Assembly: GCA_963817535.1 (NCBI GenBank) | Contig: CAWFOW010000001.1 | Location: 28,225 to 92,224, forward strand | Direction: 5' to 3' | From: an uncultured Alphaproteobacteria bacterium | GTDB lineage: Bacteria; Pseudomonadota; Alphaproteobacteria; MPNO01; DASWLB01 | Length of the DNA stretch: 64,000 bases | Shown: positions 1,207 through 7,996 of the stretch, in pieces | How the letters are laid out: every line of letters begins with the position of its first letter | Position numbering within the stretch: position 1 is the first letter of the stretch | The notes under the pieces: generated by a model | Database searches by the model: none | What the model was told of the DNA's origin: nothing | Seen by the model: the letters and a program-made list of their open reading frames with translations, nothing else | Position numbers and translations under genes: made by a program

Positions 1207-1584
1207 CTACCTCTTGCAGCACCGCCACGTGAGACAGCCATTCGAATCGCGCCGCAGGTAGCACGGGCGCTCGTCCTGCTGGCAGCGCGGCGGGGGCGGG
1301 CAACTCTGCGCGACGACGTCGCCGGCGTCCGTGACCGTCAGCTTCGCCGTGCAGGCCGGAAGCAGCTCGGCGGAGCCCAGAAGGTCGTCGGTGCCGCCGG
1401 CCGTGATGGTCGCCGCAACCGTGGCATTCGTCGTGTCGACGACCGGCATGGCCTGCACGGGTACTGCAATCGCGGCGACGATGCAGGCGGCGATCGCAGT
1501 CGACACGGCGTTGCGGCAGGTCTCCGCGCCGGCGCGTGCCCGTCGCAACAAGATGCGTCCGAGCTTTCCGCTAAGAACCGTCAT
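1207..1584 (-). CDS. Putative secreted small protein with a six-Cys C-terminal peptide
   Basis: ATG 1584 after GAGGGAGAGGGG; hydrophobic signal-like stretch ending VPVQA; C-terminus SCPPPPRCQQDERPCYLRRDSNGCLTWRCCKR. Confidence 0.6.
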   Translation of the reverse strand: MTVLSGKLGRILLRRARAGAETCRNAVSTAIAACIVAAIAVPVQAMPVVDTTNATVAATITAGGTDDLLGSAELLPACTAKLTVTDAGDVVAQSCPPPPRCQQDERPCYLRRDSNGCLTWRCCKR

Positions 1585-1610
1585 CCCCTCTCCCTCTCGC
1601 GGCGGCGGCC

Positions 1611-2025: not shown

Positions 2026-4401
2026 TCAGTGTTCCGGGCCGAACAGCGGCATGGTCGCGAGGTCGGGCCGGTCGAGATCGGCGATCAGCAGGGCGAGACC
2101 CAGCTCGCCCTTGTACAGGCTGTGGCGCGGGTGATCGGCACTGCGCAGCTGGGGCGCCACCTCGATGGCGCGTTCGGCCAGGCGGCGTGCGCGGCCGAGC
2201 CAGGCGGGATCGCCGGTACTGCGATGCTGCTCGAGCAGGGCGTAGGCGCGGCCGGCGAAGCCGCAGCAGAGATCGACCGGACCTTCGCCGCCTTCCCATG
2301 CCTGCCACGCCGCGGACTGGCCCATCTCCAGCAATGCGCTGTCGCCGGTCAGGCGGTGGGCGAGGGTGGCGAGATGCACCATGCCGGCGGCGCCGTTGCA
2401 CCAGCCCGGCATCGAGGCCTCGTACCCGTCATCCGGTCCCTGGCGCCAGGGCCAGGTGGCGCCGCGGCCGGTCGGGCGTGCCGCTTCGCGCAGCTGCTCC
2501 AGCCGCGCACGTGCCGTCCCCGGCAGCGGCGCGCCGGTCAGTTCGTGCAGGCGCAAGGTCGCGTAGAGCAGCCCGGCCCAGCCATGGGCGATGCCGAGAT
2601 TGGGCCATTGTCGCCCGTCGCGCATCGGCTCCAGCGCGTCGGCCTCGCCCCATAGCGTCGCCAGGTTGCGTTCGGCGACCGTCCGCGCGGCGACGCGCGC
2701 CGCATCGCCGTCTGGCAGGCTGTCCATCAGGATCGTGCAGCCGAGCACCGTACCCGTTCGACCGAGGCAAAGGTCGCGCTCGCGGCACGGCGCCTCGATG
2801 GCGGCGAGGAACGCGTCGGTGGAGGCCTGGCGAATTTCCGTCTCGCCGGTGGACGTCGCGATCAGGGCCTGCACGAGATGCAGCCCGGGGCGCGTGTGGT
2901 AGAACGACACCGTGCCGATGGTCGCCTGGGTCATGTCCATCGCCGGGTCGTAGAAGGCCCGCTCGGCCACCGCATCGCGTTCGGCCTTGAGAACCCAGGC
3001 ATCGGAAGCCGCGAGCAGGCGCGGATCGTCGCGCCGGCAGGCGAGCCGGTGCAGGGCGTAGGCGATGCCCGCAGCGCCGAAATTTACGGAGCATCGTGGC
3101 CCTTCTGCGACACCGTCGCGGAACAGTCCGCCATCGAGCGCGAGATGGTCGAGCATGTCGCCGAGCAGCGCGTCCGCCTTTCGGTCCCAGCGCGCCGGCG
3201 ACGCGCTCGGCGGAACGGAGATGGCGGCGAGCGCGTCGGCCAGCGCGTCCATCCCGGGGTACCGCGCCACCGGGTCGGCGGACAGAGCGCGCCGCAGGAT
3301 CTCTTCGAGGGCAGGCCAGGGCGCGGTCCCGCGCTCGGCGAAGGGCAGCGGCTTTGCGTCGGCGATCTGGCGGAACATCTCCTCCTGCTGCAGGGTGAAC
3401 TCCATGTACGGCTCGCCGGTCGCCAGCAGGTAGAGAAGCGCGGCGATCGCGAACTGCTCGCCGGACGCGGTCGGCGGGCGCGGCGGCTGCCGCTCCAGAA
3501 GCTCGCGCGCGTGCTCCGGCTCCATGAAGAAGCCGACGCCTCCGCGAAGCTGCGGATCGGCATCGCCCCCTTCGAGCTGCGCAAGGCCGAAATCGATCAG
3601 CGTGACGCCGCCGTCGCGCCCGACGATCAGGTTGCCGGGATGGATGTCGCCGTGCAGGACGCCGCGCCGGTGCAGCTCGGCATAGGTGCGCGCGATCTCG
3701 GCCTGGAGCGCGAGCAGCCCGGCACGGTCGTCATCGCGGCGCAGCTCCGCTGCCACCGTCACCGCGTCGCTGCCCGCGGCCCAGCCCATCGCCAGATAGG
3801 GACGGTCTTCGATCGTGCCGGCGCCGAGGACGGGCGGGGCGACGCTGCCCGCGAGGCGCCGCAATGCCGCTTCTTCGCCGTCGAGCCGCCGGCGCATCGG
3901 CGCCGCGTGCTCCGCGCGCGCTACCTTGAGCGCGACGAAGCCGCCATCGTCGGCACGCGCCTGGAAGATCTCGCTGTCGTCCAGCACCTGCAGTGCACGG
4001 ACGATGCGATACGGACCCACCATCGCGCCCACGGGCCAGCTCGCCGCGATCGGGCGCGCCGCCGCCGATCCTTCGGGAACGAGCAGTCCGCTGCCCAGAA
4101 GCTGGCCGAGAAGCGGCAGCGAGTCCTCCAGCGTGCGTTCCGGGTCGGCACCGTGTGAGCGGCTGTAGGTGAGCACCGCCTGCACGACCGTGCGCGGCGT
4201 ACGGAACTGCTCGATCAACGCCGCCGCGCTCGCGTCGATCAGCTTGCTGGGCTCACGTGCCAGCGGTCGCGTCAGGGCGAAGCTCTCGCCGTCGTCTTCA
4301 TTCTCGCCGATCTGGCGCCGCATCTCCGCCGGCAGCTCGGCGACGGCGACGATCATGACGTCGTCGGGCAACACCAGCGGTTCGCGCAGCACGTTGCCCA
4401 T
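2026..4401 (-). CDS. Putative lanthipeptide kinase-cyclase: RRE/PqqD-like N-terminus + Ser/Thr kinase + LanC-like cyclase (791 aa)
   Basis: Kinase motifs VALK, HGDIHPGN, DFG; LanC motifs GIAHGWAG, GWCNGAAG, LCCGFAG, SLYKGELG. ATG 4401 overlaps the upstream stop (TGATG). Confidence 0.88.
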   Translation of the reverse strand: MGNVLREPLVLPDDVMIVAVAELPAEMRRQIGENEDDGESFALTRPLAREPSKLIDASAAALIEQFRTPRTVVQAVLTYSRSHGADPERTLEDSLPLLGQLLGSGLLVPEGSAAARPIAASWPVGAMVGPYRIVRALQVLDDSEIFQARADDGGFVALKVARAEHAAPMRRRLDGEEAALRRLAGSVAPPVLGAGTIEDRPYLAMGWAAGSDAVTVAAELRRDDDRAGLLALQAEIARTYAELHRRGVLHGDIHPGNLIVGRDGGVTLIDFGLAQLEGGDADPQLRGGVGFFMEPEHARELLERQPPRPPTASGEQFAIAALLYLLATGEPYMEFTLQQEEMFRQIADAKPLPFAERGTAPWPALEEILRRALSADPVARYPGMDALADALAAISVPPSASPARWDRKADALLGDMLDHLALDGGLFRDGVAEGPRCSVNFGAAGIAYALHRLACRRDDPRLLAASDAWVLKAERDAVAERAFYDPAMDMTQATIGTVSFYHTRPGLHLVQALIATSTGETEIRQASTDAFLAAIEAPCRERDLCLGRTGTVLGCTILMDSLPDGDAARVAARTVAERNLATLWGEADALEPMRDGRQWPNLGIAHGWAGLLYATLRLHELTGAPLPGTARARLEQLREAARPTGRGATWPWRQGPDDGYEASMPGWCNGAAGMVHLATLAHRLTGDSALLEMGQSAAWQAWEGGEGPVDLCCGFAGRAYALLEQHRSTGDPAWLGRARRLAERAIEVAPQLRSADHPRHSLYKGELGLALLIADLDRPDLATMPLFGPEH

Positions 4402-5528
4402 CACGCCTCTCCCGTCCAGCGGCCCGTGGGCATGAAGCTCGCAATGTCGACGCCTTCGGTTTCGAGCCGCGCGAGGGCAAACTGCGGCGGGGTCATCCCC
4501 ATCCCTCCGCCGGCGCGGGCGGCGACGAGGGCGGCGGCGAGCTTTTCGCAGATCCATTGGCGCCAGCTGATGCGGTCGCCGAGCCAGGCCACCGTCGGAT
4601 CGGCGCCCCACGACAGCGCGCCGTCCGCGGCGATTTCGGCCGTGAAGGGGACGGCATGGGCGGCACGCCCGGCGACGATGGGAAGCAGGGATTGTGCCGC
4701 CGCGAACAGCGCGTCCCGGGTCGGGAAGTACGCGACAAGCTTGTCAGCGCGCACGAGTCCCGGCAGGTCGGCGCCGATCTTGAACTGGAGCGCGTCGCTG
4801 CCCGCGAGCGCGTCGGCAATCCGCGGCAGGCCGTCCGGCAGTTCATCCAGTGCGAGCCCGACATAAAGCTTGCAGGGCCGGTCCGATGGTGCCCGACCCG
4901 CATGTCGGGACGAGAAGACGAGCCAGGGCGAGTTGTCGGCGCCGCGCGACCAATGGCGCATCAGGCTTTCGGGCGCACGGTCGGGCACGAGGCCGAGAAA
5001 GGCAAGGCAGGCCGCACGATCGGGAAGGCGCCGGCGCAGCTCGCGGGTCATCGGCCGTCGATTGTAGGCGTAAAGCTTCTGCGCCAGCACGGGTGCGGGC
5101 GCGTTGGCGAGCGACGCGCCGTACGCGAGCGCGTCGGTTGCCAGACGTGTCGCGTCTTTGCCGTCGGCGCTGAATGACAGGCCCAACGTTTCGGTCGCGT
5201 CGGGGCCGCTGACGAAGGTTCCGTCCCGCTCGACCTCGATGATCGAATCCAGCACCAGCCGGCGCAGCATGCGGTCATTGTCGCCATTGCTCTGCGGGAG
5301 CGCGAAGCCGGGCAGGGGGCCCGGCTCCTGCAGGCTGAGGAACAGGAGCGCGGTATCGCAATCGACGGCGACAACCGGCAGGCTCGCTCCGTCGCGCGGC
5401 ACGAGAACGCCGAAGCTGTCCGGTTCGGGCGGAGCGACCTCGCCCGCATCCGATCCCAGCCGGTTCCACGCCACGGCTCGATAGGCTGGATTGGCGCGAA
5501 CCCGCGCATGCACGAATGGCGTCCTCAC
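4401..5528 (-). CDS. RRE-like N-terminus + HopA1-like (LanY-type) putative phospho-Ser/Thr lyase
   Basis: KLYV...FKIG...RADKLVAYF...SWRQWICEKLA resembles the HopA1/LanY pattern; translationally coupled to the kinase-LanC gene. Confidence 0.65.
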   Translation of the reverse strand: MRTPFVHARVRANPAYRAVAWNRLGSDAGEVAPPEPDSFGVLVPRDGASLPVVAVDCDTALLFLSLQEPGPLPGFALPQSNGDNDRMLRRLVLDSIIEVERDGTFVSGPDATETLGLSFSADGKDATRLATDALAYGASLANAPAPVLAQKLYAYNRRPMTRELRRRLPDRAACLAFLGLVPDRAPESLMRHWSRGADNSPWLVFSSRHAGRAPSDRPCKLYVGLALDELPDGLPRIADALAGSDALQFKIGADLPGLVRADKLVAYFPTRDALFAAAQSLLPIVAGRAAHAVPFTAEIAADGALSWGADPTVAWLGDRISWRQWICEKLAAALVAARAGGGMGMTPPQFALARLETEGVDIASFMPTGRWTGEA

Positions 5529-5613: not shown

Positions 5614-6048
5614 CTACTGTCTGGACTCCTTGATGACCTCGGCAATTTCCTTCTCGTGTGCGTCGAGCTCGCGGATGGCGGCTTGCAGGTCTGCCTTCAG
5701 CTCGGCCACCTGTTGCGCGTAGATCGCGGGATCGACCAGGATTTCGCCGGGATCGATATAGATGCTGCCGGGCCCGCAGCCGGGGTCGGGCTGCGTGCCG
5801 ATGCGGCAGGCAATCCAAGAGTATGGGCGATCGCACAGGATCGTGCCGCCGCGGCAGGTGAAGAAGCGGCACCATGACACGACGCCGAGACAGTAATGGG
5901 TCAGCAGCCTGCAGTTCGTCCAACCGAGGCACAGGTTGGTGTGCAGGACGCAGATGCGCAACTTGTCGGCGAGCTGGGCCAGCGGGCCCGTTGCGCCGAT
6001 GTTTACCGAGAGATTTCTGGCACGAAATTGCCGAGGCTGACGAGCCAT
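5614..6048 (-). CDS. Putative RiPP (lanthipeptide-like) precursor with leader, Cys/Thr/Ser-repeat core and helical follower
   Basis: Strong RBS GAGGGGAG; residues 33-95 hold 9 Cys and 9 Ser/Thr in C-x3/4-(T/S) units; first gene of the operon. Confidence 0.82.
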   Translation of the reverse strand: MARQPRQFRARNLSVNIGATGPLAQLADKLRICVLHTNLCLGWTNCRLLTHYCLGVVSWCRFFTCRGGTILCDRPYSWIACRIGTQPDPGCGPGSIYIDPGEILVDPAIYAQQVAELKADLQAAIRELDAHEKEIAEVIKESRQ

Positions 6049-6670
6049 GGCAGGACTCCCCTCTGTTGAAGACGAGACCTACGGGGCGGCCGAATACAGG
6101 CAGGCCGCCTCACGCCGTTCGGTCTGCGGCGTTCCAATTTCCGGATGGGGAAGTGCGTGGCGACGGCACCGCCTGTCTGGGTTCGCGCGTACAAGGTGCG
6201 GCAAATGCGACCCCGCGCGCCGGGCAATGGTCTGAATATTTTCACGTCGTCCCCTCGTCGGATGACGCATTCCGCGCAACCGACCATTTGCCCATTCGAA
6301 CATGGAATTAGGGTTCGCCCTGTGATCGTTCTGTGGCGTCAATTCTGTGCACATCACAGTACCGCATCGAATGAATTGACCGTTTCCGATTGAAGGACAG
6401 AGGGTCCGAGAACTATCGCAAAGAGTCGCGCAATCCGGTGTGCTCTGGAGCACCAGACGTGCACCACTCATCTATGCCAAGACGTCGTTGCGCTCCCGCA
6501 ACAAAGCCCTGGTCATGTCGCGATTTTGTGAATTGCGAAGCCGGCGCGGTCGGAAAATGCTTCAGCGGCTGCGTCGATTGGCGACAGCATCGCACAGTCG
6601 GTGCGTCAGGCCGATCGCTATTGGATTTAATTCGCCAGGTTTCGTTCCCTGGCGCTACGCCGAGGGGCTC

Positions 6671-7996
6671 ATGCCGCTTCCAAATCCGGTCATTGTTATC
6701 CCGGGCATTACGGCCGTTTATCTGCGCGACTTGTATCCATTGCCGCCCGAGTCGATCTACGAAGTGATGGAATGGTCAAAGGATTACGGCCGCGCGGCGG
6801 TACACCCGGACAGCTTCTCCTTTCCCCGTTTGCTCGAGGCGAAGGAGCCGGCGCAAGTCGTTCCCGATCAGATCTACGAAATCGCCTATCGCGAACTGAT
6901 CGAGGAGCTGCGTCACAATTTGCGTGACGCCGAGGAATTCCCCGTGCCGGTCTATCCGTTCGGTTACGACTGGCGCCAGCCCCTGAGCGTGATCGAGGCC
7001 GACCTCGAGCGCTTCATCGAGGACGTCGTGCGACGCACCTCTTTGATGAAGCACTATTTCGACGATGGCTACGACGACGTTGCGCGCCGCAAGGTGAACC
7101 TGGTCGGCCACTCGATGGGCGGGCTGATTATCGCGGGTTATGTGCAGAGCCGTCCGGGCGCGCCCGTCGATCGGCGCAACCGTGTCGAGAAAATCGTCAC
7201 GCTGGCGTCGCCGTTCCGCGGCTCGATCGAGGCAATCGCCAAGATTGTCACCGGCAACGCCAATCTGGGAACGGAGCCGCCGAGCTCCCGCGAGCGCGAG
7301 GCCGCTCGCGCCACGCCGTCCGTCTATCACCTGCTGCCGAGCTTCACCAACGGGATCGACATTCCGGCGACTCTGCCGCAGACCCTGTTCGATCGCGCGG
7401 TCTGGCAGCGCAGCGTGGTCGGCACGCTCGCCGAATATGTACGCAAGTATGGGCGCCAGCCGGGCAATGCCCAAGCCCAGGGCGATGCGCTGTTCGACCA
7501 GCTGCTCGACGTCGCCGGACAGCACCGTGCGCGGCTCGAAGGGCTCGACCTGCGCCAGGCGGGCTTCGATCCGGATAACTGGCTGTGCGTCGTCGGTGTC
7601 GATACCAAGACGCGCGTTCATATCGCGATCGATGCGCAGGGCCAGAGCGGGCCCGAGTTCCGCTTCGATCCCAACGTCGACCTACTCAACGACTGGCCGA
7701 ACAGCCGCATCACCGGCGATGGCACGGTACCGCTGGAAGGCGCGATCCCGGCGTTCCTGCCGGAGAACGCGCTTGTCTGCGTGACGCCGGACGATTTCGA
7801 TTTCTGGGAGATCCAGGATCGCGGCTTGGCTCAGGCCGCGGGGCTGCACGGGATCCTTCCGAACATGGACATGCTGCACCGCATGATCGTGCGATACTTC
7901 AAGCCGGATGCGCGTGGCGACGCGTGGGGCCGCCCGCTGCCCGGCGTTGCCGCCCCGAACTGGCGCCCGCCCCTGCCGATCACGCTGAAGAGCTGA
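6671..7996 (+). CDS. LCAT/PGAP1-like alpha/beta-hydrolase (lipase/acyltransferase)
   Basis: PVIVIPGI, GYDWRQ, nucleophile elbow GHSMGG, GDGTVP, C-terminal His. Confidence 0.8.
   Translation: MPLPNPVIVIPGITAVYLRDLYPLPPESIYEVMEWSKDYGRAAVHPDSFSFPRLLEAKEPAQVVPDQIYEIAYRELIEELRHNLRDAEEFPVPVYPFGYDWRQPLSVIEADLERFIEDVVRRTSLMKHYFDDGYDDVARRKVNLVGHSMGGLIIAGYVQSRPGAPVDRRNRVEKIVTLASPFRGSIEAIAKIVTGNANLGTEPPSSREREAARATPSVYHLLPSFTNGIDIPATLPQTLFDRAVWQRSVVGTLAEYVRKYGRQPGNAQAQGDALFDQLLDVAGQHRARLEGLDLRQAGFDPDNWLCVVGVDTKTRVHIAIDAQGQSGPEFRFDPNVDLLNDWPNSRITGDGTVPLEGAIPAFLPENALVCVTPDDFDFWEIQDRGLAQAAGLHGILPNMDMLHRMIVRYFKPDARGDAWGRPLPGVAAPNWRPPLPITLKS

Follow-up and report, generated by a model that had tools for sequence, protein, structure and literature searches.

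Lanthipeptide classes are defined by the arrangement of kinase, lyase and cyclase, and the question raised by the locus described here is which protein provides the lyase step when a kinase and a cyclase are fused behind an N-terminal domain of another kind. The locus is a cassette of three short genes on the minus strand of a stretch of 64,000 nucleotides (the window) from an uncultured Alphaproteobacteria bacterium (GenBank contig CAWFOW010000001.1, positions 28,225 to 92,224), encoding the kinase-cyclase P0001, the protein P0002 upstream of it and the putative precursor peptide P0003 (Table 1). The system is best read as a lanthipeptide synthetase of a class IV-like kind that is split, widespread and dependent on a lyase of the class V type, and P0001 is probably the kinase-cyclase half of this two-protein enzyme, with the lyase being supplied by P0002. 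Together the three proteins are likely to make a sulfur-bridged multi-ring peptide.

The reading frame of P0001 is free of internal stops, and both the Pkinase domain (PF00069, residues 144-380) and the LANC_like domain (residues 438-784) are matched above the Pfam cut-off. We did not adopt the GTG at 4611 as a longer start, since the homologues start at the ATG of position 4401, where a ribosome-binding site is present and the upstream stop is overlapped; a promoter and terminator scan gave chance-level results only. The top NCBIfam match is the class IV LanL model NF038150 with 156.9 bits, far under its cut-off of 650, and the alignment begins only at profile position 188, hence the lyase part is absent from P0001. 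The class III LanKC model NF038151 reaches 105.6 bits (cut-off 575), and the LanM model TIGR03897 covers only the cyclase part (442-753), with the LanM dehydratase domain being unmatched. The AlphaFold2 model has a mean pLDDT (predicted local distance difference test) of 93.6 and a pTM (predicted template modelling score) of 0.91; it was built on an alignment of 116 sequences, in which the query is joined by 115 of the 120 homologues listed from a total of 431, with fragments and two long forms being excluded. Its nearest Foldseek match is the class IV LanL CuvL. The kinase resembles PknB (Z 26.3, root-mean-square deviation (rmsd) 2.5, 255 residues aligned) and the cyclase best matches the eukaryotic LanCL-type protein GCR2 (Z 41.3, rmsd 4.2, 376 aligned), besides MadC and NisC; the alignments to MadC and GCR2 span 367-376 residues and correspond to a complete cyclase.

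Both active sites are conserved throughout this alignment. In the kinase K159, E176, D252, N257 and D270 are invariant (116/116), so that P0001 has the central Ser/Thr kinase with catalytic residues that is expected of class IV, apart from the Gly-rich loop. In the cyclase, the motifs GIAHG, WCNG and LCCG, which had been pointed out in a previous reading made from the DNA letters (the sequence-only reading), are indeed present, and they do not occur by chance because D543, H606, C668, C712 and C713 are likewise invariant in 116/116 sequences, G714 in 115. Human LanCL1 has WCHG and LCHG at the positions aligned to WCNG and LCCG, and the spacing D543-H606-C668-C712 (63/62/44) is nearly that of D642-H710-C769-C814 in the class IV LanL SgbL (68/59/45), of which D642, H710, C769, C814 and H815 were tested (PMC9292228). 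The sequence-only reading spoke of a Cys-Cys zinc motif. The Cys pair does lie at the standard LanC zinc positions; however, the predicted zinc site is a triad of three Cys (Cys3), C668, C712 and C713. The third ligand, which is His in the Cys/Cys/His site of class IV LanL, is therefore Cys713 in all 116 sequences. All ligand positions of P0001 are occupied, unlike in class III cyclases, and LCCG (711-714) contains the CCG motif typical for ProcM-type enzymes.

What replaces the lyase at the N-terminus can be assumed to be a domain resembling the recognition element (RRE) of peptides that are synthesised by ribosomes and modified after translation (RiPPs). The sequence-only reading had described a pattern of strands followed by three helices in this region, which includes FALTRPLAREPSKLIDASAAALIEQFRTPRTV (residues 41-72) and LGQLLGSGLLV (residues 98-108), and this pattern is recovered in the AlphaFold2 model, with strands 16-19, 40-44 and 53-56 followed by helices 57-67, 72-83 and 87-104, plus an additional helix (25-31) that separates strands one and two. 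Pfam PqqD matches the P0001 N-terminus with E 0.025, below cut-off, and among 74 homologous N-terminal domains ThcOx was matched in 26 (best E 1.5e-4) and PqqD in 14, again below cut-off. Moreover, the N-terminal profile aligns to the N-terminus of P0002 (probability 73%, E 3e-5, 66 columns), but not to the lyase domain of that protein. Whole-model fold searches with P0001 returned only kinases and LanC proteins and thus nothing informative on residues 1-110. The search with the P0002 model gave 11 matches on residues 1-105 (Z 5.0-6.6), eight of which are RiPP enzymes or RREs, namely TigE, MibB, TbtB, MadB, TbiB1, MccB, NisB and a lasso B1 protein, all of which we take to be RRE-bearing. It is the consistency of these matches, not any single middling Z, that points to an RRE fold of the modelled P0002 N-terminus; an RRE sequence profile found no useful match among the PDB sequences (best E 3). 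Furthermore, a complex predicted for residues 1-112 of P0001 and the first 32 residues of the precursor scored 0.61, compared to 0.01 for the best of three controls, and thereby reached a mark that 116 of 157 solved pairs and 2 of 215 mismatched ones attain. At least 81% of the contacts agree between the runs, and the partner pLDDT is at least 61. Leader residues 8-13 are predicted to pair with strand 52-56, and F8 to pack on residues 59, 62, 93, 94 and 97, so that, in the predicted complex only, the leader lies as a strand on β3 in the cleft with helix 3, as in RREs. This model supports leader binding by the P0001 N-terminus.

The lyase is encoded directly upstream, with the TGA of P0002 overlapping the ATG of P0001 by one base. 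The designation as lyase-less made in the sequence-only reading is therefore true for the P0001 polypeptide, but not for the system. The P0002 model (pLDDT 90.8) matches HopA1 (4rsw; Z 15.6, rmsd 4.1, 222 aligned), LxmKY (9dk1_B; Z 15.2, rmsd 4.0, 227 aligned), CuvL (Z 13.2, rmsd 3.5, 161 aligned), ThurKC (Z 11.9), SalKC (Z 11.1) and the phosphothreonine lyase 2q8y (Z 8.9, rmsd 3.0, 133 aligned). The lyases outrank every unrelated match, and Foldseek concurs. K220, K250, R260 and K263 are invariant in 95/95 homologues and Y267 is present in 93, and the spacing of K220/K250/R260/Y267 (30/10/7) follows that of R187/K219/R229/Y236 in the class V lyase CaoY (32/10/7), of which R187, K219 and R229 were mutated (PMC9486802). 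Hence P0002 has, by fold and conservation, what characterises a free-standing HopA1-fold lyase of class V with its catalytic Lys, Arg and Tyr. Since Pfam HopA1 (PF17914) finds no match in the own genome at E up to 1, the lyase assignment rests on the fold and on the homologues; the lyase-family profile gave nothing useful against the PDB sequences either (best E 0.51).

The pairing of both genes is a constant feature of the family. In a locus set consisting of the best 80 of 486 GTDB-genome stretches that encode relatives, a lyase homologue lies directly upstream in 73/73 loci that include the RRE start of the synthetase, with 5-155 nt between lyase end and synthetase start. Six of the remaining seven are cut by contig ends, and the last one (L063) has neither RRE nor lyase. 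The Cys pair is found in 81/81 cyclase copies of these loci, 79 times as CCG by pattern, besides ACCG and LCCF; as LCCG served among the three seed patterns, the locus set is biased for the pair, which is not the case for the set of 116 proteins. A search of 7991 candidates for long fused forms of the lyase (735-2095 amino acids) detected none, a result of weak evidential value. The L063 protein from Myxococcaceae (L063:5749-7989) is a kinase-cyclase of 42% identity with EFG in place of DFG, WCNG and LCCG being kept, and may be an orphan or have been repurposed. In the L002, L009, L017 and L052 assemblies the lyase or synthetase gene is split across frames, which makes these candidate sequencing errors or pseudogenes.

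The putative precursor P0003 has a core of nine Cys-x3/4-Ser/Thr units, with Ser/Thr at +4 seven times and at +5 twice, and the core contains exactly nine Ser/Thr matching the nine Cys. At least 55 of the 80 loci contain precursor-like open reading frames (ORFs), 62 in total and 61 of them distinct; where a precursor was detected, 48 of 55 loci show a single one. They share the N-terminal motif F-x-x-K-D-L-M-V-x-V (general form F-x-x-[KR]-[DN]-L-x-V-x-V), a very variable core with 2 to 20 Cys and a conserved helical Leu-rich C-terminal follower. Ser/Thr stands at +4 of 274 of 524 Cys (19.6% in shuffles, z 20) and is nearly absent at +2 (17/524); it occurs after the last Cys in 58/61 precursors and before the first Cys in 16/61. 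This asymmetry in the sequences favours Cys-first rings. A scan of the own genome revealed no further precursor, yet it missed P0003 as well, the leader of which scores 4.8 bits at a threshold of 5. Several relatives have tandem-repeat cores such as CYASGGG, CSNCTG and CxxCTGTT (L012:4120-4635, L014:4143-4625, L034:3984-4493, L013:4167-4778), which suggests that the ring number may change via repeat expansion. In Gemmatimonadota, precursor-like ORFs with two Cys (IPxCTLPSxCPY) and the variant leader KFRYGNLSITI are present (L003:4508-4801, L038:383-676).

From these data the following route can be proposed. The leader strand would dock on the RRE of P0001, as in the predicted complex, and the RRE-like domain of P0002 probably binds the same leader. 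The kinase with its invariant catalytic residues would phosphorylate Thr and Ser of the core, and the HopA1/LanY-fold lyase, judged by fold and catalytic residues, would act in trans and eliminate the phosphate to leave dehydrobutyrine (Dhb) or dehydroalanine (Dha). The cyclase would then activate the Cys thiols on its Cys3 zinc site while D543 and H606, as derived from SgbL, would protonate the enolate. Going by the precursor statistics, each Cys would add to the Dhb or Dha 4-5 residues downstream, and the product would carry as many as nine small (methyl)lanthionine rings placed back to back. The split synthetase thus envisaged probably forms Cys-first rings.

Table 1. Features of the cassette, with nucleotide positions in the window.
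Feature	Residues	Position (nt)	Strand	Evidence
P0001, RRE-kinase-LanC fusion	791 aa	2026..4401	minus	translation, Pfam, NCBIfam, AlphaFold2
RRE-like N-terminal domain	1-110	4072..4401	minus	AlphaFold2, weak Pfam, profile alignment, predicted complex
Hanks-type Ser/Thr kinase domain	~125-398	3208..4029	minus	Pfam, fold match, invariant residues
LanC cyclase domain	~401-791	2029..3201	minus	Pfam, fold match, invariant residues
GIAHG motif	603-607	2581-2595	minus	translation, alignment
WCNG motif	667-670	2392-2403	minus	translation, alignment
LCCG motif	711-714	2260-2271	minus	translation, alignment
P0002, free-standing RRE-like + HopA1/LanY-fold phospho-Ser/Thr lyase	375 aa	4401..5528	minus	fold, homologues
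P0003, putative precursor	144 aa	5614..6048	minus	Cys/Ser/Thr pattern, leader motif, predicted docking
P0003 leader motif	F8-I17		minus	
P0003 core	C33-S95	5764-5952	minus	
P0003 helical follower			minus	

Four other explanations have to be weighed. That residues 1-110 are the remnant of a degenerate lyase instead of an RRE is suggested by their place, which is where LanL and LanKC carry the lyase, and by the Pfam RRE matches staying below cut-off; it is highly improbable in view of the three-strand/three-helix layout, the leader predicted in an RRE cleft, and the alignment to the P0002 N-terminus rather than to its lyase domain, and none of the 74 N-terminal domains matches RamC_N or HopA1 at E up to 1. 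A more serious doubt concerns the direction of the rings. In most characterised lanthipeptides Ser/Thr is located N-terminal to Cys, and the same enzymes might well follow this usual order and form overlapping or partial rings instead of a nine-ring Cys-first product, for which speaks that Ser/Thr is also enriched at -3 from Cys (123/524, z 3.8) and that internal Thr lie 1-6 residues ahead of the next Cys. The enrichment at +4 is far stronger, however, and the usual direction would leave C33 and S95 unpaired, would give irregular ring sizes and fits poorly with Ser/Thr lying mostly after the last Cys, so that we judge it to have a minor but real chance. The sequence-only reading had furthermore proposed that CCG makes a ProcM-like promiscuous cyclase that suits a nine-ring substrate, and reviews do associate CCG/CCC in ProcM-type LanM with increased reactivity and reduced specificity (PMC12328550, PMC11251773). 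This proposal did not hold up and is unlikely: the Cys pair is family-wide, beside precursors of 2-20 Cys, and is also present in L006, L058 and L069, whose adjacent precursor has two Cys; most loci have a single precursor; the cyclase is nearer to LanCL and LanL (Z 41 and 39) than to LicM2 and CylM (Z 31 and 25); and CCC arose in three independent clades (PMC11251773).

It is similarly unlikely that the cassette modifies a small cellular protein, which keeps its leader and follower and is never released as a peptide product. This explanation does not conflict with ring formation; the cyclase might, in the manner of LanCL, attach external thiols to dehydro residues, or the trio might be an irreversible phosphorylation switch. 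The conserved follower, the eukaryotic LanCL-type protein as best cyclase match, the solved structure of LanCL1 with glutathione and a Dhb-Erk peptide (8czk), the proteins with tandem kinases and PD40 that flank many Thermoanaerobaculia loci, and the lack of a conserved protease or transporter among the scanned neighbours would all go along with a cellular protein. On the other hand, the strict 1:1 pairing of Cys and Ser/Thr at fixed spacing argues for intramolecular thioethers, and a hypervariable core between a conserved leader and follower is typical for RiPPs. Class III and IV clusters often have no dedicated protease, which takes weight from the missing protease.

Several findings weigh against the split synthetase itself. 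The structural RRE matches are individually weak (the mark of the tool is Z 8) and come from the N-terminus of P0002, not from that of P0001, and the score of the predicted complex may owe to resemblance to solved RRE-leader structures. The P0001 kinase has no Gly-rich loop and shows LQVLDDSE (residues 137-144, window 3970-3993) instead; in this acidic loop D142 is invariant (116/116) and E144 is present in 104 sequences. For P0002, neither Pfam nor NCBIfam gives a match, and among its 95 homologues HopA1 was matched in only 14 at E up to 0.5 and RamC_N in 7. In the P0002 family Tyr222 (94/95) occupies the position of the catalytic His of OspF and LanL, which is lacking in CaoY, too (PMC9486802). 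The precursor set contains kin and repeats, and the z-scores thus overstate independence. Finally, neither a protease nor an exporter was found among 22 scanned neighbouring ORFs, which were mostly from recurring families.

The neighbourhood and the occurrence of the cassette offer additional observations. P0001 was not detected at E 1e-40 in any of 40 related genomes, three of them of the same genus; its occurrence is patchy at this threshold. Cultured organisms, Streptomyces sp. NBC_01310 and Bacillus cereus, are the annotated sources of the homologues P0097 and P0122. Many cassettes, mostly in Thermoanaerobaculia, are flanked by proteins of about 1,170 amino acids with two kinase domains (L040:902-4423 and L040:8398-11925, in both of which a PD40 propeller was confirmed; further in L006, L013, L016, L024, L026, L030, L035, L047, L051, L052, L060 and L064-L066), and another short 2-Cys precursor often comes after such a protein. 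In L019, L027 and L061, in which no precursor was detected, a gene of the tryptophan-halogenase family is located upstream of the lyase (e.g., L027:2989-4728), and a methyltransferase is encoded further upstream, as scanned in L061; both are possible tailoring enzymes. No decarboxylase for aminovinylcysteine (AviCys) formation is among the recurring neighbours. In L006 (L006:8457-14144), L060 and L066 the synthetase is followed directly by a protein that has RHS repeats and, at its C-terminus, a ribonuclease domain. In the window itself, a small ORF at 1207-1599 (minus strand) downstream of the synthetase encodes a signal-peptide-like stretch and six Cys in the last 35 amino acids; it has no Pfam or NCBIfam match and does not belong to the recurring neighbours. 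An LCAT-like alpha/beta hydrolase (PF02450, E 1e-10) is encoded divergently at 6443-7996 (plus strand) upstream of the precursor.

The layout is common, since the RRE profile matches 984 clusters at 50% identity and relatives are encoded in the 486 GTDB stretches mentioned above. We see an even balance of chances that the cassette represents an undescribed class of lanthipeptide machinery, which would be widespread in uncultured members of the Acidobacteriota, Chloroflexota, Gemmatimonadota and other groups. In such a class, a precursor made of leader, core and follower would move between the docking domains of an RRE-lyase and an RRE-kinase-Cys3-cyclase, and its hypervariable repeat core would receive thioether rings of five residues each, in tandem and Cys-first, with about 20 per peptide as the upper end. 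With a leader of about ten residues, highly variable cores and regular Cys-first rings it would make a compact peptide-stapling platform.

Among the known systems, the class IV LanL enzymes (SgbL; CuvL, 8car/8cav) are closest to P0001, as they also consist of a Hanks-type kinase fused to a zinc-dependent LanC cyclase. However, they carry an OspF-like lyase in the same polypeptide where P0001 has the RRE-like domain. Moreover, leaders of classes III and IV bind as a helix (PMC11330476), whereas a β-strand leader is predicted for P0001, and precursors of the P0003 type have a long follower unlike those of class IV systems. P0002 in turn resembles the class V LanK-LanY pairs (CaoK/CaoY; LxmKY, 9dk1), in which a free-standing HopA1-fold lyase is likewise encoded beside a kinase gene. 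Class V has a separate kinase of the APH type and no LanC-type cyclase, whereas the kinase of P0001 is Hanks-type and fused to LanC; the RRE-like domains of both enzymes are a further difference. Eyles et al. (2021) described clusters with a HopA1-like lyase, a phosphotransferase and a LanC-like cyclase together, as found here, and proposed HopA1-LanC clusters as an uncharacterised lanthionine synthetase (families 11/20 and 22; PMC8153245). In their clusters lyase and cyclase are fused or neighbours, whereas in the present cassette the fusion joins kinase and cyclase, with the lyase being free, and a search of their peptide table for the leader motif gave five rows, none with the leader-core-follower build of P0003. 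Class VI (He et al., 2023), compared by its description in a review (PMC10676316), is also centred on a kinase and departs from the three-domain plan of LanKC and LanL, but it has a cyclase and a lyase domain that are both truncated, is restricted to Streptococcus and acts on miniature substrates, unlike the complete cyclase, separate lyase and 2-20-Cys substrates described here. The Cys/Cys/Cys triad is shared with ProcM and SyncM of class II and with the 'L-CCC' group, for which eight clusters of the lyase/kinase type, defined by a hidden Markov model of VenL-type lyases, were counted (PMC11251773); however, ProcM has a LanM dehydratase and many scattered precursors, whereas P0001 has no such domain. 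We found no description of an RRE-kinase-LanC protein with a free RRE-lyase in the literature covered, to which subscription journals largely do not belong, and the available main text of a structure-based RRE survey (PMC12710340) mentions neither HopA1 nor kinase nor lyase. As any kinase-LanC protein is assigned to class III/IV by Walker (2020), members of the family may be hidden among those entries. Since the layout couples a class IV kinase-cyclase to a free lyase of class V, with RREs replacing the recognition of a helical leader, it fits none of the lanthipeptide classes I-VI as tested and is possibly a new one.

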